Shown here piece by piece: positions 145-56,298 of a stretch of DNA of 56,298 nucleotides (position 1 is the first letter of the stretch; each line of letters opens with the position of its first letter). This DNA comes from a virus (Duplodnaviria; Caudoviricetes). The translations under genes and the position numbers were made by a program. The stretch covers positions 1 to 56,298 of IMG/VR virus record IMGVR_UViG_3300037861_000279, one strand, 5' to 3'. The notes under the pieces were generated by a model. The model had not been told where the DNA came from and made no database searches. It saw nothing but the letters and a program-made list of their open reading frames with translations.

Positions 145-3100
145 CATGAAGGGCCTGCAGCAAGCCGGAGCTGACATCGAGGTATCATGTGGTGCCTGCT
201 ATGTTGACTCTGCCAGGATCAAAATCGGTCTTGCCGTGGAGAGATTCATTCGATTGTTTCCTGATTTCGCCCAACACAAAGAGGATCTCCTTTTTCAGCG
301 GGGGCTCGATAAGCTAAAGAGAGATAATCCGGATGTATTCACCAAGTTCACCAGCTACATTGCCCCGCAGAATATCAAGGCATCCGAGTCGAGGACAGAT
401 TATGACTCTGACATCCTCTTCTTGCCGCAAAAATTGGTTGACCTCTTTAACATCAGGTCCGGTTTGAGGTGGCAGTCATGGTCCGATTTCGAGGTTCCTC
501 ATCTTATCGATGCCATGCAGGCAGTCGTTGATCATGCCGCCAGGGGATTAAAGGCCCACACCTACACGAAGGTACCCCTTATGGCCGAATTGTTCGGCAG
601 AACAGGGATTATGATGAACATGTCCCTTATCCCGAAAGGCACTGGAGTTAATAAGGATGGATCTCTGGACTTTGATCCAGTCGAGGGGATGCCTTTTGAT
701 GTAGCCAAAGAACTGCGTAACAGGAAAGAGCACAGCAATACAGTGGGTACCATCGCCATCGGTGTTACTGATGAGAATATCCTGGCCATGATGGCAGATC
801 CTGATATCGACTTTATCATCCCATACCACAAGTCTGGCCTGCCAAAGATCATTGCAGACCGAGAGGGAATGGAAGCTTGGCAAGATTACACCGACTCACA
901 AAACAATAAAATCGGTGATAAAAAGCTGTTCGCCAAGTCTCGGTTCAAGGACATCGACGACTTCAGTGATTGGGACTCGACTCTTGCCTGGTGGGATGTC
1001 ACAAAGACGGGTGATGAGAATGCCAGTGTGTATCTAAAAACTGCCAGGGACGCTGGAGTAAAACCGAAATTTGCCAAGTTCAGCAATAAGCCTGGCTATT
1101 GGAAAACACTCATCGACCGGAAGATGTTCAACAACGATGGGGCCCAGATTATCCAGCAGGCACTTAAACCTGTCTACGACATGGAACTGGTGAACAAAAC
1201 CATCAGCGAGTACCAGGCCCCAAGGTCAGAGGCGGATCCACAGATTGTCGATGATATCGCCAATACAATGCCAAAGACTCTTTCCAATGAAGAGATAAAG
1301 ACAGGATCTCATAAGACCCAGTCACAGCACGACCTTCTTCTCTCGAAAAAGAAATCAGATCGCAGCAAGTCTGAAGAGAAAAGGATTGCCGGCATAAAAG
1401 ATAAGATCAAGAACGGTGTCAAGGCTGAGACTCTCAGATCTGATGGTGCCGCCAAAAAGGAATTGACCAAACCAGAGCAGGTTGGATTGGCTTACCTCTT
1501 CGACCTTCATAAGGCCCAGCAGATGTACCCTGGCGATTATGATCGGTTGATGAAGCTGTATACCAAGGCCGGAGGTCAGTTCTCTTTCTCCAGCCCTGCA
1601 GCCGGAAAAGCCGAGGAGGCCGAGCCAGCACAGGCAGATGGTGAGATCCAATATTCCATCCGGACAAAGCCAGCTCCGAAAGAGACCAAAAAGGCATACA
1701 AATTATTCAGGAAAGTAGGCGATGCAGCACACGCTCTATTCATAGGTCGTTCTATGCCCATGAAAGAAGGAACGTGGTATGACGCACAGTCTCCGCTCAT
1801 AAAAGACTTGGAAGGCCTTCCCGTTAACAAAACATATCTGATCGATAAAAAGGGCAATGCTGTTACCAAGAGATTTGCCAACAAGCAACAAGCTCCAAAC
1901 AAAAAGCTTATAAACGAGGCAGGCTTAGACGGAACAAGATACGTGCTGATCAAGGAGCACAAAAAGACAGGCGAGAGGCTATACCACAACTGGGGCATCA
2001 ATGGCAGTGGTGGAGTCTCCACCTTCGCCATGCGACCAGGCTGGCACTCTACCAACGTTCCGTCAGCTCGACATATAGGTGAGCAGGTAGACGGCAAAGT
2101 TGCCTACCGCAGAGAAGATGAACAATGGGCAGAGATAGAGGTCTCCGCCGATAAAGACTACAACGAGGAAGCAAACAGTCGAGCCTCAAAAGATATACCC
2201 GAGAATATCCCAGAAGACGGTTGGTACTCCTTCCAGACGAATACGAATGCCAACAAGGCACAGGATTGGTTTATCGGGGGAAGCATCAAGATCAACCGAT
2301 TTCTGTCCGACTTAGAAGCACAGGAGATTTCACTGGCTGACGGGTACGAAGCAGACCTGCCTAGAAAGAATGCTACAGAGGTCTCCGAGGCACCAGAAAC
2401 TTCGCTCAAACAACTCAAAGAAAAGCACAGTGGTTCAATCGGCACCATCCTGATCAGTGAGTCTGGCAACGACATTAAATTGGCTTCTATAATTGTACAG
2501 AAAGACAATCGTAAACAAGGCGTGGGTACTGCCTTCATGAACGATCTTGTCGCTCTAGCCGATTCTCAAGGTAAACGAATTTTGCTATCCCCAGGTCAGA
2601 AAGATGACAAGCACGGTACGTCCTCAAGATCGAGATTAGTCAAGTTTTATAAACGGTTCGGTTTTGTTGAGAATAAAGGAAGGAATAAAGACTTCCAAAT
2701 ATCCGAAGGAATGTTTCGTGATCCTGCCGACGATGTCTCCGAGTCTCCAGATACCTCCAAAGAAACAGGTCCGGTACAAGAGACCACACTCGGCGAGATC
2801 CTAAATAAAGCCCAGACCGAATCTGTTAACGAGGGAGTCCGGAAGTTGTCCAAGCTTCTCGGGCAATTCATCCCAGCAGAAAAACTAAAGATCAAAGTTG
2901 TAATCGATCCATCGGCGAGGTCTTCGAGCTTCAAGTCGAACAAAAACACAGGGTTTAAACAGATCACAATAAAGTCATCACTGAAGCATGGAGTTAACTT
3001 GCATGAGATCGTCCATGCAGTCACTGTGCTTGAAATGAATAGCAACCCCGTTCTCAGGCAGAAGGTCAAACACTTGATGCATCAAGTCAAAACGGACCTG

Positions 3101-6100
3101 ATTAAGAACGGTGTCATCTCCAAAGAATTACTCGATGCGGCTGCAGAGTCCAAAACAAGCAGAGAGTTTAAGAGCAACTTCAATGGCAAGATCGACAAGA
3201 CGGTGGGTGATATCGTCTATGCCTTCTTAAATGAGAAAGAGTTCCTGGCCCAGGCATTCTCTTCCAATAAATTCCAGAATCTTCTCAATGGTATTCAGGT
3301 CCGTGATAAGGGTGCTATGAAAAGTGCCTGGGACGCCTTCGTTGAGCTGGTAATGAAAGGTCTCGGAATAAACCCCAAACATGACAATGCCTTTTCTGAG
3401 GCGATCAAACTGGTTGCTGAACTGGCAGGGAAGGAGGCCACAACCGCAGACACAATCTCCTTGGAAAATATGTTCTCTCCAGATTGGTATTCAAGATTAC
3501 AGGGAACCCTGCAGGAAAAAGGAAGTACACAAACTGCAGACCAGTGGCTGAAGTCTATTTCCAGCTGGAAGAAAAAAGGCACCTTGCCTGCTCCGGTTCA
3601 AGAAGAACTTGAATGGTCAGGCCTCGAAGACTACCTGGCAGGACTTGGTAAGGAAAAGGTCTCCCGTGAGCAGCTGGCAAAATTTGTTGCTGACAATGGG
3701 GTTAAACTTGAGGAGGTTGTAAAGCAGGGAGGTAATCCAGACGGAGGTAATCCAGACGGAGACTGGGAGGATGCAACATCAGAGGAAATCCTCGAAGCGT
3801 ATATGGCCATGACCGGTCAGACCGAAGACGAGGTGCAGTGGGTTACCGAGGGAGACATGATAGTAGAACTAAACATGGAACTCGACCCATCAAATGATGC
3901 AGCAAAGTTTGTGGAATACCAACTCCCTGGCGGAAAGAATTATAAAGAGCTGTTGATCACCTTGCCCAAAAAAGAGAACACTCCCGAGAGAAAGAAGTTC
4001 GAATCCTTTATTGGCAAGATGGAGACGAAATATGGCGATGACTGGATAGACGAGATAACAAAAGCGGAAGAGGACGAGAGAAACATTCTCGCAAGGGACT
4101 CCGCAAATTCACAGGATCTCCAGTTCGATTCATCCCATTACGAAGAAGCCAATATCTTGGCTCATATCCGCTTCAACGAACGTTTGGACCCCGATGGTAA
4201 GAAGGTTCTTTTCCTTGAAGAGATCCAGAGTGACTGGCATCAGTCTGGAAAAAAGAAAGGCTATAAGGGAGACAGTGCTAAGTTCACCGAAAAATGGAAA
4301 GATCATGTTGAGAAGATAGAGCCTTACGTTAGTGCAAACAATGAGAACATAGCAGGTGAGGATATAGCGAATGTTGTCGGAGACCCCCTTGTCCTTGAAT
4401 CTATAGGAGTGCCTGAGGCAATAATAAACGAAGGCCTGGCGTTGGTTAAAGAGATGAATAGCGACTTGTCATCAGTGCCAAACGCACCATTCAAGAGCAC
4501 ACCGGCATGGACGATGTTGGCGATGAAACGGATGATACGCTATGCCACGGAGAACGGGTTTGACAAGGTTGCCTGGACTACTGGCGAGCAGCAGGCAGAA
4601 CGGTATGATCTGAGCAAGAAGATAAGCAGAGTTGTCTATGATCCAAACGATAAAACTCTTTTTGCCTATGACCTCGACAGCAAGCAGGTCATGAAAGAGC
4701 GCAATGTAGGAGAAGGTCAGATAGAGGATCACATTGGCAAGGAAGCTGCCAGGAGACTCACCTCAAAGGAAAACACCAATCTCAAGCATGAAAGCAAGGG
4801 AGGAGGAGTAAACTTCTATGAGATAGAAGGCGAAAATCTCAAGGTTGGCGGCGAAGGAATGAAGGCCTTCTATGACAAGATGCTCCCCTCCAACACGCAG
4901 AAATTCATTAAGCAGTTTGGTGGAAAGGTTGAGAATTTTCAGGTCGACGTCGGGTCTCAAGACTGGGTAAGTGGAAGCATGGTCATGGACTCAATGGGTA
5001 TTCCGGAAAAAGACCAGTCAGCCTATTGGGGAAACCTCGAGGCTGAAGAGCGTGATCAACTCCAAGACGACTACCGGAAAGAAATATCACATAGCAACCA
5101 GCAGGGGTTCTCAATAACTCCGGCCATGCAAGAGTCTGCAGGCATGCCTTTGTTCGCACCGAAAAGTTTAGAAGACGATGTGTCCGAAGCACCCCCAGGC
5201 GAAGACTCGATAGAGGGCATCATGTCCAACCTTCGTAAGACTGCCACAACCAAGGCAGATCTAGAGAAGGCTGGCATAGCAAAAGAACAAGAAATAATCG
5301 AACAATATCGGAAACTTGAGACACTTGCGAGAGATCCGCATTCTTCTATCGCAAGCAAGCAGGCGATGATCGCATCCTTCCTGAAAGTTCTTCCCGTGAA
5401 CGTCCGTGCAAAGGTCATCACTCCTTTGACTTTCATCAGCAGGTTTCTGGGAATTGGAACTCATACGAAGCGAATGGATGAGGCCCTTGCCCGTGCGGAA
5501 AAAGAACTTGTCAGTTACTTGAGTCGTGAGATAATTGCCGGTATTCAAAAGGGGATCACTCCCAAGAAACTGGCCAAAAACAGAATCAAGAAAGATACCA
5601 TCGGGCCTGCTGCAGCAAGAGATCTTCAGTTCATCAGGGACACTCTGAAAGAAGAAGATATCGAGGCGATTGCGGTACAGGTCGATGCTCAGATTCTAAG
5701 GAAAGAAGATGAACTCGAGGCGGCAACCGACAAGGAGGCCCTGGTAATCGAAGATGAATTGTCCGATCTCCGGTCTCACAGGAATATCATTGAGACATTT
5801 GGAGATCTCAAAACTCAGAACCTTGAGGATCTGTTGTTTGCCAAGGAGGCCCTGAACTCGATTGTCTCTGAGGGAAGAGCCCTGTGGAGAGCACAGCAGG
5901 AATCTTTCAAGGCAGCATTGGGACCAGTCGTTGCCAAAGTCCAACAGGACATTTCCGGCCAGGAAGATCCGACTGTTGAGTCAGCTGCAGAGGCCACCAA
6001 AAGAAGGGAGAAAGAGGACACAGTTAAGGGACGGGCGAAGAAGACTTGGAATGCAGTTGAGAACAGCATCCTGTCCTGGGAATTTTTGATGAACAAACTC

Positions 6101-8284
6101 TCTACTCTTGCCGGCGATAAAGTCCTGCAGTCATATACAACGAAGAAGATGTTATCAGTGGCCAAAAAAGCAACCGATGACGAGATCCTCTATAAGGATG
6201 AATCTGATACGACTATTCATTCAAAAGCTATGGAGATTTTCAACACCAAGAAGGATGCTGACCTGAATGAGCTTTTCATGGATCAGGAGATAAAGCAATC
6301 CGGAGAAGTCTTCGCATATGGCGAGATGGGGAAACAGCTTGGTGACTTCACCATGTCTCCCATGGAAGCTGCCTACATGTATGCCGTCCGGAAAAACCCC
6401 GACAGTATTCCGACATTCGAAGGCATGCACATGACCGACAAGACCTTCGATGAAATTGAGAAGTTTATCGGGCCGGAGCTGAAAGCGTGGGTCGACTATA
6501 ATGTCGATGAGTATCTGCAGGATTTCCACTACGATGTGAATCAGGTTTACCGGAAAGTTTTCGGAACCAATCTCTCTAAAACACCAGGGTATATCTCATG
6601 GTATCGAGATGTTCCCGGGAAGGTACAGGAAAAGGGTATAGCGGCGAGCCCTTCAGAGTCCGGAACTAAGGGAATGGCGAGGGGTGCATTCAAGGAAAGA
6701 GTCAAGAACACCAACCCCTACCGGATGATGAGCTTCAACGATGTGCTGATGAAGCATGTCGATGAGATGAACAACTTCCGTGCCTGGGCCATGCCTACCA
6801 AAGTTATAAACGGAGTGTTCAATAATCGACAGACACAACGATTGATAACTCAGCACCATGGGGCAAACCTGGCCAAGAATATTAAGCAATTCCAGACGGA
6901 CTTCACCAAGTCTCCGACAGAACTCCGTGGAGATCTGCCGTGGCTCGACCAGTTACGAGGCAACATCACAACGGCAATGACTGCCCTCAATCCTACAATC
7001 TTCCTGAAACAGTTGACCTCAATCCCAGCACTGGCAGAATCAATTCCAGCCAGTGCCTGGGCGAAGAACTCTGCCTTATTTTGGACAAATCCTCTGAAAG
7101 CCTGGAACATATTAAAAGATTCCAAAACCTGGGAAGGACGGAGACAAATGGGCATGGAGCGGGACATACGAACTGCCCAGGTCGTTTCCGGATCACAGGC
7201 TATTGCTAATGTCCGGAACCTGAAGAACAGAGCAATGTTTCTCGTAAAGTGGGGTGATGGTGCGGCTATTCTGGTGGGCGGATATCCTGTTTACAAATAT
7301 CATTTCGACAAAAATTTGAGTGAGATGGGCAAGGCTGCAGCTCACAAGTTTGCCCTTGGTAAGTTCGAAGAGGCCATGGACAGAACCCAGCAGTCTAGCG
7401 GCATAAAGGACCAGGGTAATATCCAGCGTTCCGGCAGCTATGCCAAGCTGTTCACCATGTTTATCACATCTCCAAAGCAATACACCTCCCAGATAACTGC
7501 AGCCATAAGGGGAATACACGCTAATCCAAAGGATGGGGATGCATACAAGAGACTGTTTATTTTTGGCGTACTCATGCCGTCCTTATTCAAAGCGACAGCT
7601 ACTGGCCTCCTTGGTATAATCGGTGGTGATGATGACGATAAAGAAGAGTTTGTCAGTGGCCAGATAAAAGCGATCTTGACCTCTCCTCTCAACGGGATCC
7701 CCATAGTTCGTGATCTCCAAAATGCTGTGTGGGAATCAGCTGTGGGAGAATGGTACGGTACCGATGTCGATTATTCTCCGGCCACTCAGGCCGGAAGTTC
7801 TTTGATGGGCGCCATTTATCATGGGGCAAAGTTGTTGTCCAGTGAAGAGATGACTCCCGAGAAGAAAGAGAAACATCAGAACTTAGCATTGAAAAATTTG
7901 TTTGAAACCGTTGGCTATCGTTTCGGTTTACCTGCCAATACCGTGCGGAAAATGGTTTTGGAAAACTGGGCTGATGTTGCCTCTGGAGAAACCGATTACC
8001 CAATCAGGAGGAGTCTCGGGTTTAGTCGTTATGCCATGGGCGAAAAAGCAAGTCGGTACACCAGAAACAAAACCAAGGTGGAAGATGCCACAAAGCGGAG
8101 AGAGGACAAAGAGCCGAGGGAAGGAGACGGTAATCTCTTAAAGCTCAATGGTTTTCTAAAGGACACAGAAACGAGAGTCAGAAGATTAAAAAAGCTCAAG
8201 GGCCTGGCAAAAACCAAAGAGAGCAAAGATGGCTATTCAGAGAAAATAGAAAAGGTTAGGTCACAATTTAATAATCGGTTCTAG
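2..8284 (+). CDS. Giant polyvalent virion/ejection protein, C-terminal part (continues from 52475 across the junction; whole protein 3987 aa)
   Basis: Frame is open from base 2 (NSDPHYRKSLDFSTICKKR), so the TTG at 65 is not the real start. Contains C-x46-CxxCY, an RPGWH domain, a GNAT (RKQGVGTAFM...FYKRFGF), a HEIVH zincin with EFLAQ, an EEIQSDWHQ domain and a long helical C-terminus. Last gene of the ejection-protein cluster. Confidence 0.9.
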   Translation, partial: NSDPHYRKSLDFSTICKKRLELAATLEAIQLKLGRGLTPKEISDTRLHMKGLQQAGADIEVSCGACYVDSARIKIGLAVERFIRLFPDFAQHKEDLLFQRGLDKLKRDNPDVFTKFTSYIAPQNIKASESRTDYDSDILFLPQKLVDLFNIRSGLRWQSWSDFEVPHLIDAMQAVVDHAARGLKAHTYTKVPLMAELFGRTGIMMNMSLIPKGTGVNKDGSLDFDPVEGMPFDVAKELRNRKEHSNTVGTIAIGVTDENILAMMADPDIDFIIPYHKSGLPKIIADREGMEAWQDYTDSQNNKIGDKKLFAKSRFKDIDDFSDWDSTLAWWDVTKTGDENASVYLKTARDAGVKPKFAKFSNKPGYWKTLIDRKMFNNDGAQIIQQALKPVYDMELVNKTISEYQAPRSEADPQIVDDIANTMPKTLSNEEIKTGSHKTQSQHDLLLSKKKSDRSKSEEKRIAGIKDKIKNGVKAETLRSDGAAKKELTKPEQVGLAYLFDLHKAQQMYPGDYDRLMKLYTKAGGQFSFSSPAAGKAEEAEPAQADGEIQYSIRTKPAPKETKKAYKLFRKVGDAAHALFIGRSMPMKEGTWYDAQSPLIKDLEGLPVNKTYLIDKKGNAVTKRFANKQQAPNKKLINEAGLDGTRYVLIKEHKKTGERLYHNWGINGSGGVSTFAMRPGWHSTNVPSARHIGEQVDGKVAYRREDEQWAEIEVSADKDYNEEANSRASKDIPENIPEDGWYSFQTNTNANKAQDWFIGGSIKINRFLSDLEAQEISLADGYEADLPRKNATEVSEAPETSLKQLKEKHSGSIGTILISESGNDIKLASIIVQKDNRKQGVGTAFMNDLVALADSQGKRILLSPGQKDDKHGTSSRSRLVKFYKRFGFVENKGRNKDFQISEGMFRDPADDVSESPDTSKETGPVQETTLGEILNKAQTESVNEGVRKLSKLLGQFIPAEKLKIKVVIDPSARSSSFKSNKNTGFKQITIKSSLKHGVNLHEIVHAVTVLEMNSNPVLRQKVKHLMHQVKTDLIKNGVISKELLDAAAESKTSREFKSNFNGKIDKTVGDIVYAFLNEKEFLAQAFSSNKFQNLLNGIQVRDKGAMKSAWDAFVELVMKGLGINPKHDNAFSEAIKLVAELAGKEATTADTISLENMFSPDWYSRLQGTLQEKGSTQTADQWLKSISSWKKKGTLPAPVQEELEWSGLEDYLAGLGKEKVSREQLAKFVADNGVKLEEVVKQGGNPDGGNPDGDWEDATSEEILEAYMAMTGQTEDEVQWVTEGDMIVELNMELDPSNDAAKFVEYQLPGGKNYKELLITLPKKENTPERKKFESFIGKMETKYGDDWIDEITKAEEDERNILARDSANSQDLQFDSSHYEEANILAHIRFNERLDPDGKKVLFLEEIQSDWHQSGKKKGYKGDSAKFTEKWKDHVEKIEPYVSANNENIAGEDIANVVGDPLVLESIGVPEAIINEGLALVKEMNSDLSSVPNAPFKSTPAWTMLAMKRMIRYATENGFDKVAWTTGEQQAERYDLSKKISRVVYDPNDKTLFAYDLDSKQVMKERNVGEGQIEDHIGKEAARRLTSKENTNLKHESKGGGVNFYEIEGENLKVGGEGMKAFYDKMLPSNTQKFIKQFGGKVENFQVDVGSQDWVSGSMVMDSMGIPEKDQSAYWGNLEAEERDQLQDDYRKEISHSNQQGFSITPAMQESAGMPLFAPKSLEDDVSEAPPGEDSIEGIMSNLRKTATTKADLEKAGIAKEQEIIEQYRKLETLARDPHSSIASKQAMIASFLKVLPVNVRAKVITPLTFISRFLGIGTHTKRMDEALARAEKELVSYLSREIIAGIQKGITPKKLAKNRIKKDTIGPAAARDLQFIRDTLKEEDIEAIAVQVDAQILRKEDELEAATDKEALVIEDELSDLRSHRNIIETFGDLKTQNLEDLLFAKEALNSIVSEGRALWRAQQESFKAALGPVVAKVQQDISGQEDPTVESAAEATKRREKEDTVKGRAKKTWNAVENSILSWEFLMNKLSTLAGDKVLQSYTTKKMLSVAKKATDDEILYKDESDTTIHSKAMEIFNTKKDADLNELFMDQEIKQSGEVFAYGEMGKQLGDFTMSPMEAAYMYAVRKNPDSIPTFEGMHMTDKTFDEIEKFIGPELKAWVDYNVDEYLQDFHYDVNQVYRKVFGTNLSKTPGYISWYRDVPGKVQEKGIAASPSESGTKGMARGAFKERVKNTNPYRMMSFNDVLMKHVDEMNNFRAWAMPTKVINGVFNNRQTQRLITQHHGANLAKNIKQFQTDFTKSPTELRGDLPWLDQLRGNITTAMTALNPTIFLKQLTSIPALAESIPASAWAKNSALFWTNPLKAWNILKDSKTWEGRRQMGMERDIRTAQVVSGSQAIANVRNLKNRAMFLVKWGDGAAILVGGYPVYKYHFDKNLSEMGKAAAHKFALGKFEEAMDRTQQSSGIKDQGNIQRSGSYAKLFTMFITSPKQYTSQITAAIRGIHANPKDGDAYKRLFIFGVLMPSLFKATATGLLGIIGGDDDDKEEFVSGQIKAILTSPLNGIPIVRDLQNAVWESAVGEWYGTDVDYSPATQAGSSLMGAIYHGAKLLSSEEMTPEKKEKHQNLALKNLFETVGYRFGLPANTVRKMVLENWADVASGETDYPIRRSLGFSRYAMGEKASRYTRNKTKVEDATKRREDKEPREGDGNLLKLNGFLKDTETRVRRLKKLKGLAKTKESKDGYSEKIEKVRSQFNNRF
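3728..3761 (+). repeat. 15-bp in-frame tandem duplication (GGNPD x2)
   Basis: GGAGGTAATCCAGAC twice, then GGAG. Confidence 0.9.
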
Positions 8285-44498: not shown

Positions 44499-45128
44499 AT
44501 GGCGAGATTCTCAGTTAAAGTAAAGAACCTGATGAAGGGATTAAGGCCGAGCAAGCGCAATCCACGGAACAACGGATTCCTCACCACCTGTGCGGGTATG
44601 GTTGGCAGAGATGGTGTCCTGCAGGCCATAGACCCATTCTCGACCATCTTGGCTTATCCGATGCAGGTAATCGGGACAGATCGCCTGAACTATACCTGTA
44701 TTGCTGACCATGTGGCGGCATCGACCAACATTCCGGTAACTGGAGTCGACTGGGCAACATATTGGTCACAGAGTGGTACCGATGGCGAGGTCTGGGTCGA
44801 CGGGAAATCCTACATGACAAACGTGAGTGACGGGTTCCCTTATCCTCAAATTTTTGAATTCAGGCAGATGACAATCGTCTGTGGAAAAACAGACATATAT
44901 GAGTGGGTTGATTCCGCTCTTGTCTTGAGACTGTCTGTAGCTGCAGGGCAGACCTGGCGAGCTCTTGACTTCAACGATTTTATCTACATGACCAATGGTG
45001 TGGTTTCTGTTACCAGGGATCCTCTCACAAAACTCTACTCCGTCTCTGATCAGCCTCCAGCCTATGCACTTTGCAATTACAATGGCCAGGTAGTTATTGG
45101 TTCTCCTCCTACTAATTACTGGGAATGA
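44499..45128 (+). CDS. Tail nozzle-like protein, N-terminal part
   Basis: Follows the adaptor; KGL start; beta-propeller-like FNDFIYMTNG and YNGQVVIG. Confidence 0.5.
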   Translation: MARFSVKVKNLMKGLRPSKRNPRNNGFLTTCAGMVGRDGVLQAIDPFSTILAYPMQVIGTDRLNYTCIADHVAASTNIPVTGVDWATYWSQSGTDGEVWVDGKSYMTNVSDGFPYPQIFEFRQMTIVCGKTDIYEWVDSALVLRLSVAAGQTWRALDFNDFIYMTNGVVSVTRDPLTKLYSVSDQPPAYALCNYNGQVVIGSPPTNYWE

Positions 45129-52474: not shown

Positions 52475-55400
52475 ATGGCACTTAAACAAGGATTCACCGA
52501 TGGTTGGGCTACCGATGAAGATGTCGAGACTGCTGAGTTAAGCAAACAGACTGCTGATGTCAGCAAACAGACCGATGATACTCTTTCTTCCGACTTCTCT
52601 GACGGGTGGTCTACAGCTGAACCTGTTGCAGAACCTGAACTGGAGACCGGAACAAAGCCCGAGGATTATAGTAGATCTCTGGCCGTTGGTTTAAACAGAT
52701 TTGGTCAAACCATTGGCCGAGCTATCGATGTCGTCGGTAATGTTGATCCGACAGGTGTCTTGGACAAGGTCGGGCAGGATGTGGAATCCTTCTATAAGAA
52801 AGAGGCAGAAGAGGACCAGGCAGCACTGTCTCCCGCAATGCAAGCGGCACAGGAGTTGAAGTACACCACCGATGTCGAGGAGTCATGGAAAGAGGCGCCA
52901 CTCAAAAACTTCATGAGTATTTTCCAAGGCGATGCCTGGAAGAGTCCCGAGAAGGTGGCTGGCAGTTTGCTGCAGTCAGCACCTAGTACCATCGTCGGTA
53001 TGGGAACCGGTATGGGTATCACTCAGGGCTTGATTAAAGAGAGCGCCAAGTTGGTGGCAGACAAGCTGATCAAGAAGGGCATCTCTAGTGGCCTGGCTGG
53101 TGTAATCGGTGGTTTCATTGGAGAGGGTGGAACTGCATCTATCGAGACTGGAAAAGATGTGTACGACTTGGTCATCACCGCACCATTGGAGGTTATCTCC
53201 AAAACTCCTGAATATCAAAAAGCATACGAAGCACTCTCCGGTGAGAAATTAACTGAGAAAGAAAAAGAAAAGCAAGCCAGAGAACTTGTAGCTGACCATG
53301 CCGCCATGAAATCGATGGCAAAGGTGTTTGCTGCGACAGGAATGCTCGGGAGTGTCTCCGGCCATTACATGGGTAAACTCATTGGTGGTGAGGCAACCGG
53401 AGGTGTAGCCAAGAAGGTATTGATCGGTGCCGGAACTGAGGGACTGCAGGAAACACCACAGAGCGGGTTCGAAATAGTCGAGCAGAACTTACAAAAGAAA
53501 AAATTCGTCAACCCAGAGCAAGACATCTGGGAGGGAGTCAAGGAGGGATCTGTCGAGGGTGGTGTTCAAGGAATGGCCATGGGCGGAGGTATGGCAAGTA
53601 TCCCTGCCGTTCTAAGCAGAGGTGGAGTTCAGGAAGAAAAGCGCATCGACAACTCTGCCCTCACAACCCTCAAGGAGGGTGGCCACATCATCTCAGATGA
53701 CTCTGCAGCCGGCGTGGACATCCTCGGGGGTTTCGGATTCGTTAATCAGCCTCTTGATACGGTTATAGAATCCCTGGCCGATGCCCCGATAGAGGTCTTG
53801 ATGGAAAGACTCACTGACGATGTTCTTTCCTCAGAGCATTTCCAGAACATTATTGGCGAGCTGGAAGAATCTGGCGTGAATGTAGAAGACGATGCCGAAG
53901 TCAAGCAGGCCATAATCGAAAGGGTTATTCCGACAATGCAGATGAGCTTGCAGGTTGGTCTCGCAACCTCCAACATGACAACAGTCCAAAAGAGACAGGT
54001 GATCTCAGACCTGAATAACGCAGAGGATCCCAGTGCCAGGGTTAAGGCCGTTGAACAAATAGAGAAAGCGATTGAGAATAAAAAAGTTGCTCAGTCTTGG
54101 GCGAATACTGCTCTTGATAAGATTGATAAAGGGGCAGAGATTGTCCTCGATCAAAGCTTCATCGACTTCGCAGCACAAGACGAGGGAACCCTATCAAGCT
54201 TACGAGAGGAAAGTGTCGGGAATGCCAATGCCGAATATGCCGGAGAGCTGCAGCGTAAACTGAACAACTTGGAGGCACACAAGAATCCTTCCGATAGTGT
54301 CAAGTCAAACATCATACAGATCAAACACCAGATCGGTCAGCTGGAGGAAGGTCTCAAGCAGAACAGGTTCAATATTCTCAAAGCAAAAGCAGAGGGAACC
54401 CCAGCTGAATCTATTACTGTTGATGGTGTTCAGCAAAAGGTTGATGGTATCGAACCGGAGCTTTTAACCTCTGAAGAGCAAATAGAATATGTCGCTTTAA
54501 AGAAAGAGTTCGGCCAGGAAGCTGCAAAGGCACCAGAGAATCAAATCCCAGCCGGAGAAAGTAAAACTGCCGAGCAGGAATCGACTGACAAAGCAGTTAA
54601 GAAAAAAGAGGACTCCTCATCACCAGGGAGTGCCGAGAGTGATCTTCTCTTGGATATGGCAGAAGAGGCCGAGGCTGTTCAGGAAGGTGAGAACACAAAA
54701 AAACGAAAGGCAGACTTCGAAAAGCTATCTGGAGTTGCCTCCGACAAGGCGAAGGTACCTCTTGCTCCAGCTAAAGGTGCAGTTGTCGATGCTGAACTTA
54801 CAAAAGGGGATCCTGTTTCCACCTCCGAGACAACTCCTCGACAACGCAAGGCCCAGAAGAGATTGGATGAGCTTGCTGAAAAAGCAAAGTCATATACTTT
54901 GACTCCGATGGATATGGTTGAGCGTGACGATCTCAATGATGAACTGAAGTCCGGTGTGAAGTATTCCATCAAGGTTCAGGAAGACAGGACCATAAGCAAG
55001 GAAACCACCTTTAACGAGAACCTCTTTGTGTATCTGGATCCCATTAACTCTTCGCAAATGGAAGAGAGGATGGGTAGAGAAAAACTACTGAAACGACATT
55101 CACACGACAATATAGAACACACTTCATCACAATTTGGTGGCTGGAGGGTTTTGTATAAAAACGACAACGGTGACATCGTAGGCTCAATACAAGGTGTGAA
55201 AAATCCGAACAGTGGAGAGGTTATTGTCTCCAATGCCTATGTTCGTCCAGACTTTAGAAGGAAGGGTATCGGAAAAACCCTGATGGAAGAGGCTGAAAAA
55301 AGGTTCAAGAACATAACTCTCAGCGGGGATAATTCAATAACGGGTGCGGCACTGGTGGATAGTGTTGTCAATAAAGAGCAGTATTCCGTGGAGGACTCCA

Positions 55401-56298
55401 CCGGATCGCCAGTAACAATCGAGTCAGTGCGGCAGGCCTTCCCTGGACAGACGGTAAACGAAGGTGCCGATGGTAGCTTCATAGTGCACACCACAGGGGG
55501 GATGGTTGTTACGGTCCATCCGAATGCTGACATCGAAGTTGATGCGACTACTGCATCTGCCGCATACCAGAAGACGATCAAGCCTGGCACCAAAGCAGCA
55601 GGCTCTTTCCAGATGATAGGGGGGAAAGCTGTTATCCAGTTGTCCAAAGAAGCTGGCACCAATCCTCTCAAGCACGAAATATATCATGCCGCCGAGGAAA
55701 TGGTACTCACCCAGGCAGAGATTGAGGCTATTCGTAAGAAACACGGGAACTCTGAGCAACGAGCAGAAGCATACAACAACTGGGATGGCGAGACATCTGC
55801 CCCTCTTTTCCAGAAGATCAAAGAATTTTTCCAACAAGTTGCCAAGGCTCTGGGCCTGAAGGTCGACACCAGTGCTGCAGATTCTCGGAAGGCATTTGGT
55901 AAGATCGAGTCTGGCGAAGTTTGGGCAAGAGACCCCAACGACCCCGATGGTTCTATCTCTGTAGACTATTCTATCCGGTCCTTGCCTGGTACCGAGAAAA
56001 GACTGATCGCCTGGAATGCCGAGCACAAGATGGTCCCTGCTGCCAAAATGAAACAGTACATCAAAGATCTGCAGTCAGTTTCTGCGATGATTCTCGGTGG
56101 ACCAGCATCACTGGATTACATTCCGACCAAAGACATCTACAAGGCACTCAAGGACAATTCGGATCCGCACTACAGAAAATTTCTAGACTTCTCTACCATT
56201 TGCAAGAAGAGACTGGAATTGGCAGCAACCCTCGAAGCTATTCAGTTGAAACTCGGGCGTGGTCTTACTCCAAAAGAAATCTCCGACACCAGGCTACA
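52475..56298 (+). CDS. Giant polyvalent virion/ejection protein, N-terminal part (absent from ORF track; joins 2-8284)
   Basis: ATG directly after the upstream TAA; hand translation shows no stop to the window end; 56156-52475 is divisible by 3, so it joins the frame of base 2. Contains Gly-rich hydrophobic segments, EGLQETPQ, a GNAT (YVRPDFRRKGIGKTLM) and a HEIYH zincin. Confidence 0.92.
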   Translation, partial: MALKQGFTDGWATDEDVETAELSKQTADVSKQTDDTLSSDFSDGWSTAEPVAEPELETGTKPEDYSRSLAVGLNRFGQTIGRAIDVVGNVDPTGVLDKVGQDVESFYKKEAEEDQAALSPAMQAAQELKYTTDVEESWKEAPLKNFMSIFQGDAWKSPEKVAGSLLQSAPSTIVGMGTGMGITQGLIKESAKLVADKLIKKGISSGLAGVIGGFIGEGGTASIETGKDVYDLVITAPLEVISKTPEYQKAYEALSGEKLTEKEKEKQARELVADHAAMKSMAKVFAATGMLGSVSGHYMGKLIGGEATGGVAKKVLIGAGTEGLQETPQSGFEIVEQNLQKKKFVNPEQDIWEGVKEGSVEGGVQGMAMGGGMASIPAVLSRGGVQEEKRIDNSALTTLKEGGHIISDDSAAGVDILGGFGFVNQPLDTVIESLADAPIEVLMERLTDDVLSSEHFQNIIGELEESGVNVEDDAEVKQAIIERVIPTMQMSLQVGLATSNMTTVQKRQVISDLNNAEDPSARVKAVEQIEKAIENKKVAQSWANTALDKIDKGAEIVLDQSFIDFAAQDEGTLSSLREESVGNANAEYAGELQRKLNNLEAHKNPSDSVKSNIIQIKHQIGQLEEGLKQNRFNILKAKAEGTPAESITVDGVQQKVDGIEPELLTSEEQIEYVALKKEFGQEAAKAPENQIPAGESKTAEQESTDKAVKKKEDSSSPGSAESDLLLDMAEEAEAVQEGENTKKRKADFEKLSGVASDKAKVPLAPAKGAVVDAELTKGDPVSTSETTPRQRKAQKRLDELAEKAKSYTLTPMDMVERDDLNDELKSGVKYSIKVQEDRTISKETTFNENLFVYLDPINSSQMEERMGREKLLKRHSHDNIEHTSSQFGGWRVLYKNDNGDIVGSIQGVKNPNSGEVIVSNAYVRPDFRRKGIGKTLMEEAEKRFKNITLSGDNSITGAALVDSVVNKEQYSVEDSTGSPVTIESVRQAFPGQTVNEGADGSFIVHTTGGMVVTVHPNADIEVDATTASAAYQKTIKPGTKAAGSFQMIGGKAVIQLSKEAGTNPLKHEIYHAAEEMVLTQAEIEAIRKKHGNSEQRAEAYNNWDGETSAPLFQKIKEFFQQVAKALGLKVDTSAADSRKAFGKIESGEVWARDPNDPDGSISVDYSIRSLPGTEKRLIAWNAEHKMVPAAKMKQYIKDLQSVSAMILGGPASLDYIPTKDIYKALKDNSDPHYRKFLDFSTICKKRLELAATLEAIQLKLGRGLTPKEISDTRL
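56155..56298. repeat. Terminal direct repeat copy 2
   Basis: Identical to 1-144 except T56181 vs C27. Confidence 0.97.

Follow-up and report, generated by a model that had tools for sequence, protein, structure and literature searches.

A conserved junction motif flanks a predicted zincin metallopeptidase and opens other modules of a giant phage polyvalent protein: candidate processing sites

What does a tyrosine-serine tripeptide do when it stands, four times over, at the beginnings of unrelated modules in a single phage protein? The question is raised by the IMG/VR virus record IMGVR_UViG_3300037861_000279, whose whole stretch of 56,298 nucleotides (nt) is the window of this analysis. Its giant open reading frame (ORF) starts at 52475, runs off the window end, is resumed at base 145 and stops at 8284, giving a protein of 3,987 amino acids (aa) with the tripeptide YS[IV] at aa 830, 970, 1165 and 1778. 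Judged against homologues, these tripeptides represent a junction motif that is conserved among phage polyvalent proteins, and in many homologues the motif brackets the family of an embedded zincin-type metallopeptidase, here zincin 1. We tentatively read such YS-type motifs as processing sites of this zincin, a reading in which we infer the cleavage, the enzyme, the bond and the timing alike, and which we rate at somewhat short of even. The features on which the argument turns are as follows.

52475..56298, + strand: giant ORF, first part (aa 1-1274)
145..8284, + strand: giant ORF, second part (aa 1275-3987 and stop); bases 1-144 duplicate the last 144 bases
54956..54973, + strand: junction motif 1, VKYSIK (aa 828-833; K829 = 54959), before GNAT-1
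54974..55369, + strand: GNAT-1 acetyltransferase module (aa 834-965); Pfam Acetyltransf_1 at 37.7 bits (cut-off 20.7), aa 889-946
55376..55393, + strand: junction motif 2, EQYSVE (aa 968-973; Q969 = 55379), N-terminal flank of zincin 1
55427..55945, + strand: predicted zincin metallopeptidase 1 (aa 985-1157); HEIYH at aa 1067-1071 (55673-55687), E1094 (55754-55756) the probable third ligand
55961..55978, + strand: junction motif 3, VDYSIR (aa 1163-1168; D1164 = 55964), C-terminal flank of zincin 1 and start of the Cys-rich module
55979..56298 then 145-1570, + strand: Cys-rich ('Cys-triad') module (aa 1169-1750); 34% identity to the relative P0004 over aa 1156-1646
1577-1591, + strand: weaker QFSFS (aa 1753-1757)
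1646..1663, + strand: junction motif 4, IQYSIR (aa 1776-1781; Q1777 = 1649), start of the RPGWH module
1664..2365, + strand: RPGWH module (aa 1782-2015); phrog_30118; 13 related viral loci at 38-50% identity

An earlier note on this DNA had located VKYSIK, EQYSVE, VDYSIR, IQYSIR and QFSFS in the sequence, and all five lie where it placed them. It had also set a YS[IV] before GNAT-1, the HEIYH zincin, the Cys-rich module and the RPGWH module, and borders drawn independently of the motif agree: the Pfam GNAT match covers aa 867-946, the BLAST alignment to P0004 begins at aa 1156, and tblastn alignments of the RPGWH module begin at aa 1763-1780 (query residues 1-18). The count within this protein alone is weak evidence. 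YS[IV] occurs four times against 0.77 in shuffles (P about 0.009, in a post hoc test), other tripeptides are equally enriched (e.g. NRF, 4 against 0.24), and the broader [YF]S[IVL] occurs 5 times with 3.2 expected; the case beyond chance comes from homologues.

With aa 966-1170 as query, phmmer gave 239 proteins at E ≤ 1e-3, and our analyses use 150 of these 239 plus three from another search (153 in all); nearly all of the 150 are 1,000-5,000 aa long. Copies of the domain were anchored on the conserved AFPG and SGxVW (121 and 127 anchors), and ranges running past a protein end were dropped, leaving 116 upstream (-45..-12) and 124 downstream (+8..+45). The strict motif [YF]S[IVL] is found in 21/116 upstream ranges (2.9 expected) and 26/124 downstream (3.5 expected), and the relaxed [YF][SAQ][IVLA] in 39/116 (10.3 expected) and 58/124 (12.4 expected). 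When the middle residue was varied, Ser gave 21 upstream and 26 downstream (2.6 and 3.7 expected, a 7-8 fold excess), while Ala (9 and 12) and Gln (6 and 7) were about 4 fold enriched. The reversed motif and [YF]S[DEKR], counted as decoys, stayed at background around zincin 1.

The motif is found at other borders too. Away from the peptidase zones, 160 strict motifs have 91 unique BLAST alignment starts at -10..+9 around them where 31 are expected; related proteins share architecture, so that these counts are not independent of one another. The extended form [RKQ][YF]S[IVL] occurs 83 times in the 153 homologues against 30.4 ± 5.7 expected, and 0/40 shuffles reach 83. Across 219 sites the surroundings are linker-like, with K/R at -1 in 75/219, P/T at -2, G/S at -4 and -3 and R/K at +3. 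The folds that the motif opens are unrelated, comprising GNAT, zincin, Cys-rich, RPGWH, WYS and ART-like modules. At the RPGWH start, 12 of the 13 viral loci carry a related motif aligned with IQYSIR, each behind unrelated upstream sequence (RFSIR 1, RFSLR 1, RLSLR 6, RFKTR 1, MFRVR 1, RFRLR 2, none 1); several of these loci are near-identical, and grouping gives about eight lineages, about 7/8 of them with the motif. The consensus that these alignments suggest is roughly hydrophobic-[K/R/Q]-[Y/F]-S-[I/V/L]-[R/K], the first conserved element of a module after a polar linker. The comparison of motifs with domain borders across homologues that the earlier note had proposed thus finds the motif enriched on both sides of zincin 1 and at other module starts.

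These data bear directly on one alternative, that sites 1 and 4 are accidents and only the pair flanking the peptidase has meaning. The tripeptide is short, its enrichment within this protein is matched by other tripeptides as described above, and site 1 has little to be compared with: the viral-contig scan found no GNAT-1 homologue, that of aa 823-1274 returned 1 locus, and tblastn with aa 776-1272 found no match in the phage collection. Against this, site 4 is kept in nearly all RPGWH lineages, all four YS[IV] stand at independently drawn borders with none inside a module, and GNATs of relatives are themselves preceded by the motif, as YSVR in P0153 and FSIY in P0177. We consider the accident very improbable. 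At the position of site 3, relatives in which the same module follows have Y[AQ]LD or MLSIR.

A motif that stands on both sides of a protease and again at the starts of unrelated modules presents the pattern of a self-processing polyprotein. In the mechanism that we propose, the embedded zincin would bind the motif as an extended strand laid on its edge strand (aa 1041-1047 in the structural model), over the HEIYH/E1094 zinc site, and the HEIYH enzyme would be the cutter of the YS-type sites in this protein. The products would be GNAT-1, the peptidase, the Cys-rich module and the RPGWH module, cut apart in the capsid or after ejection. Picornavirus 3C and potyvirus NIa are familiar cases of an embedded protease with a repeated junction motif in its polyprotein. 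The likeness lies in one short motif on both sides of the embedded protease and at other junctions, and in hints, discussed below, that sites and protease type vary together. The differences are that the enzyme here is a zincin, not a chymotrypsin- or papain-like protease, that cleavage here is predicted, and that the motif also occurs in relatives with no recognisable protease.

Observations on the flanks of zincin 1, on its relatives and on the segment docked in a modelled complex weigh against processing by this zincin. The two flanking motifs show no excess of co-occurrence: among 87 copies, 14 have both, 17 the upstream one only, 31 the downstream one only and 25 neither. Outside the peptidase flanks the bare tripeptide is near background, with a slight excess in 154 proteins (222 against 179.3 expected), and 46 of the 154 have no copy of it. 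The upstream motif keeps a fairly fixed distance, with 16/22 strict motifs between -50 and -11 (four bins) falling in the -30..-21 bin, and Q969-S971 is predicted as a short beta strand (predicted local distance difference test, pLDDT, about 72) that could be part of the fold. Furthermore, the 2017 work on polyvalent proteins describes the N4 virion RNA polymerase, ArdC and TraC1 as carrying metallopeptidase (MPTase) domains and yet being delivered uncleaved (PMC5512222). A separate idea, that the upstream and downstream motifs pair as a clasp between the N and C termini of the domain, was rejected on the disorder of the downstream motif in the model (pLDDT <50) and on the same lack of excess co-occurrence.

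Several of these points would be natural if the motif were a non-proteolytic module-start element, a short amphipathic beta strand that travels with modules and serves in folding, packing or docking while the protein stays uncut. The alternating hydrophobics of I-Q-Y-S-I and V-K-Y-S-I suit such a strand, as do the prediction for Q969-S971, the fairly fixed upstream distance, the contiguity of the motif with the conserved N terminus of RPGWH, its presence in P0176 despite the lack of any HExxH, and the uncleaved delivery of the N4, ArdC and TraC1 proteins just mentioned. A structural part of each module would not be expected to precede folds as unrelated as those listed above. Moreover, the downstream motif lies at a variable distance in polar sequence of low model confidence, the zincins of P0011 and P0100 begin right at the domain and lack the motif (they may be fragments), and homologous junctions can carry a different motif, VSE[AS]P. 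We regard a pure module-start strand as somewhat unlikely.

Processing by zincin 1 is further weakened by proteins that have the motif and lack the enzyme. P0176, which is 71% identical in the C-terminal scaffold, has the junction DVRYSI and no HExxH anywhere. The family-1 domain was found in 0/5 records bearing an RPGWH module, one of the five being at least 90% complete. That one, a complete 43-kb viral record, encodes a 4,574-aa polyvalent protein with an RPGWH module and HEITH at aa 735 (L017, 4911-18635, minus strand); it contains five [RKQ][YF]S[IVL] against 0.54 expected (reached by 0/1000 shuffles), with at least five junctions of the form [VI]-[RQ]-[FY]-S-[IV], and the family-1 hidden Markov model (HMM) does not match it at E ≤ 1. 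Similarly, P0198 combines four RFSI junctions and a HETFH motif with no match to the family-1 HMM, and counts against zincin 1 as the cutter. The earlier note had called the YS motifs cleavage sites of 'peptidase 1'. The conserved junction motif flanking zincin 1 upholds one part of that proposal, and its specificity for peptidase 1 is not borne out: some relatives that carry the motif have no member of that family, or no HExxH at all, and the assignment was therefore too narrow.

The sites might instead be cut by another protease, such as an MPTase of another clade acting in trans, a capsid maturation protease or a host protease. The abundance of the motif in proteins without a family-1 zincin favors this, including the G001 protein with HEITH and P0198 with HETFH and its RFSI junctions. 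Set against it are the 7-8 fold bracketing of the zincin itself, the restriction of VSE[AS]P to zincin-2 proteins, and a density of YS-type motifs in the rest of the proteome that is at background (11 in 12,501 residues). A PHROGs scan of 20 of the approximately 60 ORFs recognized no head protease, a weak point given that several ORFs had no match at all. Altogether we find a different protease unlikely.

A complex of zincin 1 (aa 977-1160, with Zn) and the segment around the RPGWH start (aa 1758-1797) was also modeled, using an alignment of our own. It scores 0.67 where the best of three controls scores 0.01; this mark is reached by 58/80 solved complexes and 2/110 mismatched pairs, a calibration that is only rough here given that alignment and the ligand. 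At least 67% of contacts are shared between runs, and the partner has a pLDDT of 51 or more. In favor of processing, the peptide rests antiparallel on the edge strand (aa 1041-1047), where it contacts H1067, E1068, H1071 and E1094, the usual substrate mode of zincins. What docks is aa 1785-1797, which brings Y1793-K1794-L1795 to the zinc site, and not YSIR (aa 1778-1781); for the YS motif as the bound element the model is therefore no direct support. YKL fits the relaxed aromatic-x-aliphatic pattern, yet it is part of the conserved hydrophobic stretch with which the RPGWH fold begins, and its docking may be an artefact of a peptide taken out of its fold. We also note that the model places this conserved RPGWH start, KAYKL (aa 1791-1795, 1691-1705), in the active-site cleft 13 residues past YSIR.

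Beyond the RPGWH module the protein changes its junction wording, and it is here that sites and protease type may vary together. The features concerned are these.

2381..2395, + strand: VSEAP (aa 2021-2025), junction before GNAT-2
2402..2725, + strand: GNAT-2 module (aa 2028-2135); Pfam Acetyltransf_7 at 27.4 bits (cut-off 27); 38% identity to the P0153 GNAT
2735-2749, + strand: VSESP (aa 2139)
2798..3475, + strand: zincin 2 (aa about 2160-2385); HEIVH at 3002-3016 (aa 2228); 19 homologues; no family-1 HMM match
5180-5194, + strand: VSEAP (aa 2954), just before the C-terminal scaffold

VSE[AS]P occurs three times in this protein against 0.008 expected, bracketing GNAT-2 and marking the exact start of the C-terminal scaffold, and it is absent from the 153 family-1 homologues (0 in 307,855 residues). 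In the 19 family-2 proteins, 3/4 [DE]VSE stand at module borders, two of these flanking zincin 2, and DVSE-type border motifs are found in two other zincin-2 proteins, P0162 and P0169. Within a protein, sites are slightly more alike than between proteins (difference 0.093, against 0.008 ± 0.036 for decoys, with 1/60 reaching it). The motif type thus appears to track the peptidase family to some degree. A family-wide flanking of zincin 2 by VSE[AS]P was considered and rejected, DVSE-type motifs being at the flanks in 2/19 only and most ends reading otherwise (GMP[LM]F, TDTYY). Other relatives have wording of their own: P0177 (aa 900-1290) reads LYSTTED, FFQTAEP and IRYQTSED at three successive borders and P0178 reads KLQTTED, which looks like a lineage-specific dialect.

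At two homologous junctions the wording has been exchanged. In P0153, a GNAT 38% identical to GNAT-2 is framed by YSVR on either side, at the places taken in this protein by VSEAP and VSESP, and P0176 reads DVRYSIAK in place of DDVSEAP, just before the C-terminal scaffold. The earlier note had seen in the RPGWH module, with YSIR on one side and VSEAP on the other, either an AND gate requiring both peptidases for release or the seam of two fused cassettes. Nothing that we found supports the gate. The seam accommodates these junctions, at which a relative has YS[IV] in place of VSE[AS]P, and from these alignments it appears to fit better than the gate.

A bolder extension would make these proteins programmable polyproteins, in which each module carries an N-terminal address tag, the HEIYH family reading [K/R/Q][Y/F]S[I/V/L] and the HEIVH family DVSE[A/S]P. 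If so, two orthogonal proteases would cut one chain, and modules would swap between phages together with their own cut sites. We consider this quite unlikely. A further speculation is that cleavage directly ahead of the aromatic residue would give the released effector a Tyr or Phe N terminus and so, through the bacterial N-end rule, make it short-lived.

The prediction that zincin 1 is an enzyme follows from its conserved residues and modeled fold. H1067, E1068 and H1071 are invariant and E1094, the first residue of EQRAEAY (aa 1094-1100), is nearly so in a 32-sequence alignment, and HExxH followed by a Glu is present in 142 of the 150 listed homologues by a crude pattern. An AlphaFold2 (AF2) model built with this alignment reaches a pLDDT of 84.2; single-sequence AF2 of aa 823-1274 gave 39.1 and was unusable. 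In the model, HEIYH sits on helix 106-119 (model numbering) and E1094 is residue 137, on helix 136-145. Its top structural neighbors in a wide VIA-align search are zincins at Z 5.8-4.0, all below Z 8 and in the range that the tool calls common: the catalytic domain of anthrax lethal factor (1yqy_A, Z 5.8, root-mean-square deviation 3.9, 123 residues aligned), PPEP-2 and PPEP-3 (6fpc_A and 9g0j_A, Z 5.7), SprT (6mdx, Z 4.7), PprI (8sln, Z 4.6) and ArdC (6sna, Z 4.0). The lethal factor and Pro-Pro endopeptidase gluzincins, which we take to be family M34, thus share HExxH and a downstream Glu with zincin 1, and with Z <8 the resemblance is one of fold only. Foldseek against the PDB returned nothing at E ≤ 0.001, the alignment profile against PDB sequences nothing at E ≤ 1, and Pfam no peptidase family in the giant protein at E ≤ 0.1. 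Among the 32 aligned members, one matches DUF6782 (0.0035) and one Peptidase_M78 (0.0074), both marginally, and the other 30 match no peptidase model; protein-atlas neighbors are unnamed viral clusters only. On this model, zincin 1 appears to be a zincin-like fold with an intact HExxH...E, for which peptidase activity is predicted.

The first 625 residues of the giant protein (52475-54349) form a conserved N-terminal scaffold, 62% identical to P0176 over aa 1-625, followed by a low-complexity linker to about aa 829. At aa 152-393 (52928-53653) the scaffold matches phrog_2206, 'virion RNA polymerase' (profile positions 216-432 of 3,406, E 2.8e-07), a stretch corresponding to the N-terminal, non-polymerase part of N4-like virion proteins. 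Two further features complete the chain.

3476..5164, + strand: 'WYSRL...ITPxMxxS..GMPLF' module (aa 2386-2948); BLAST matches in about 20 homologues, with starts at aa 2370-2389
5195..8281, + strand: conserved C-terminal scaffold (aa 2959-3987); 69-71% identity to P0176, P0177 and P0178 and 49% to P0179, all matches beginning at aa 2956-2960

In P0176-P0179 the ends are kept and the middle parts differ (e.g. an ART-PolyVal module or other zincins), which looks like a constant N- and C-terminal scaffold with swappable cargo modules. GNAT-1 has additional Pfam matches to Acetyltransf_7 (33.6 bits, cut-off 27) and Acetyltransf_10 (30.5, cut-off 23.6), and the region of P0003 equivalent to the Cys-rich module matches Pfam GP88. 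The WYSRL module is closed by an element of its own, [HF]S-x-x-ITP-x-M-x-x-S...G-x-P-[LM]-F (5099-5164, aa about 2928-2948), which many homologues have again immediately before zincin 1 or zincin 2 (e.g. QPLFS, QPLFR, MPMFE); the terminal Phe-x-x of its G-x-P-[LM]-F resembles the junction motif.

This composition makes the giant protein, as far as domain content can tell, a virion-type polyvalent protein of a phage, as Iyer et al. 2017 use the term (PMC5512222). It joins several unrelated enzyme domains in one very large chain (3,987 aa, two GNATs and two HExxH zincin-type modules), and its phage origin is indicated by the virus record with portal, large terminase, head and tail proteins. Pfam detects no LPD domain in the giant protein itself at E ≤ 0.1; homologues of zincin 1 carry LPD38, LPD3, LPD23, InPase, ART-PolyVal and PBECR2. 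Autoprocessing of polyvalent proteins by MPTases has been a published prediction since 2017 (Iyer, Burroughs, Anand, de Souza, Aravind; PMC5512222), and the analogy with polyproteins of eukaryotic RNA viruses is drawn in the same work. The likeness to the proteins treated there is that of a giant phage chain of unrelated enzymes with zincins interspersed between domains; the difference is that here one MPTase family is surrounded by a defined junction motif, and another family is accompanied by a motif of another type. The literature found names no cleavage motif for such proteins, and the supplementary files of PMC5512222 might list one; as far as that literature shows, the defined junction motif is the new element. 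By kind of protein, the closest comparisons are P1 DdrB, a capsid-packaged cargo reported to be processed before packaging (cited in PMC5512222), and phi24B gp47, a large polyvalent protein of 2,811 aa that is abundant in virions (bioRxiv 10.64898/2026.04.10.717836). Both are large cargo or ejection proteins associated with the virion, and both have a metallopeptidase domain; the likeness drawn here is one of kind, and the passages concerned give no cleavage sites.

The motif names the exact residues to mutate and the peptide termini to seek, and so opens the prediction of 2017 to direct test. Should the sites be real, they would help to delimit many unannotated modules in giant proteins and would explain the exchange of cargo between phages with a common N- and C-terminal scaffold.

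The giant gene has tail-fibre genes on one side and a tail gene on the other. Portal, large terminase, major head and tail/tail-fibre proteins were recognized among the 20 other ORFs of the PHROGs scan. The record ends in a direct repeat of 144 nt (1-144 and 56155-56298) with a single mismatch, a Phe-to-Ser change in the giant protein. The record is listed as linear in IMG/VR, and the repeat could be the overlap of a circular assembly or a short terminal repeat. Lastly, a separate 209-aa ORF in the structural block (44499-45128) opens with MARFSVKVK, placing a junction-like RFSVK at its N terminus, possibly by chance.

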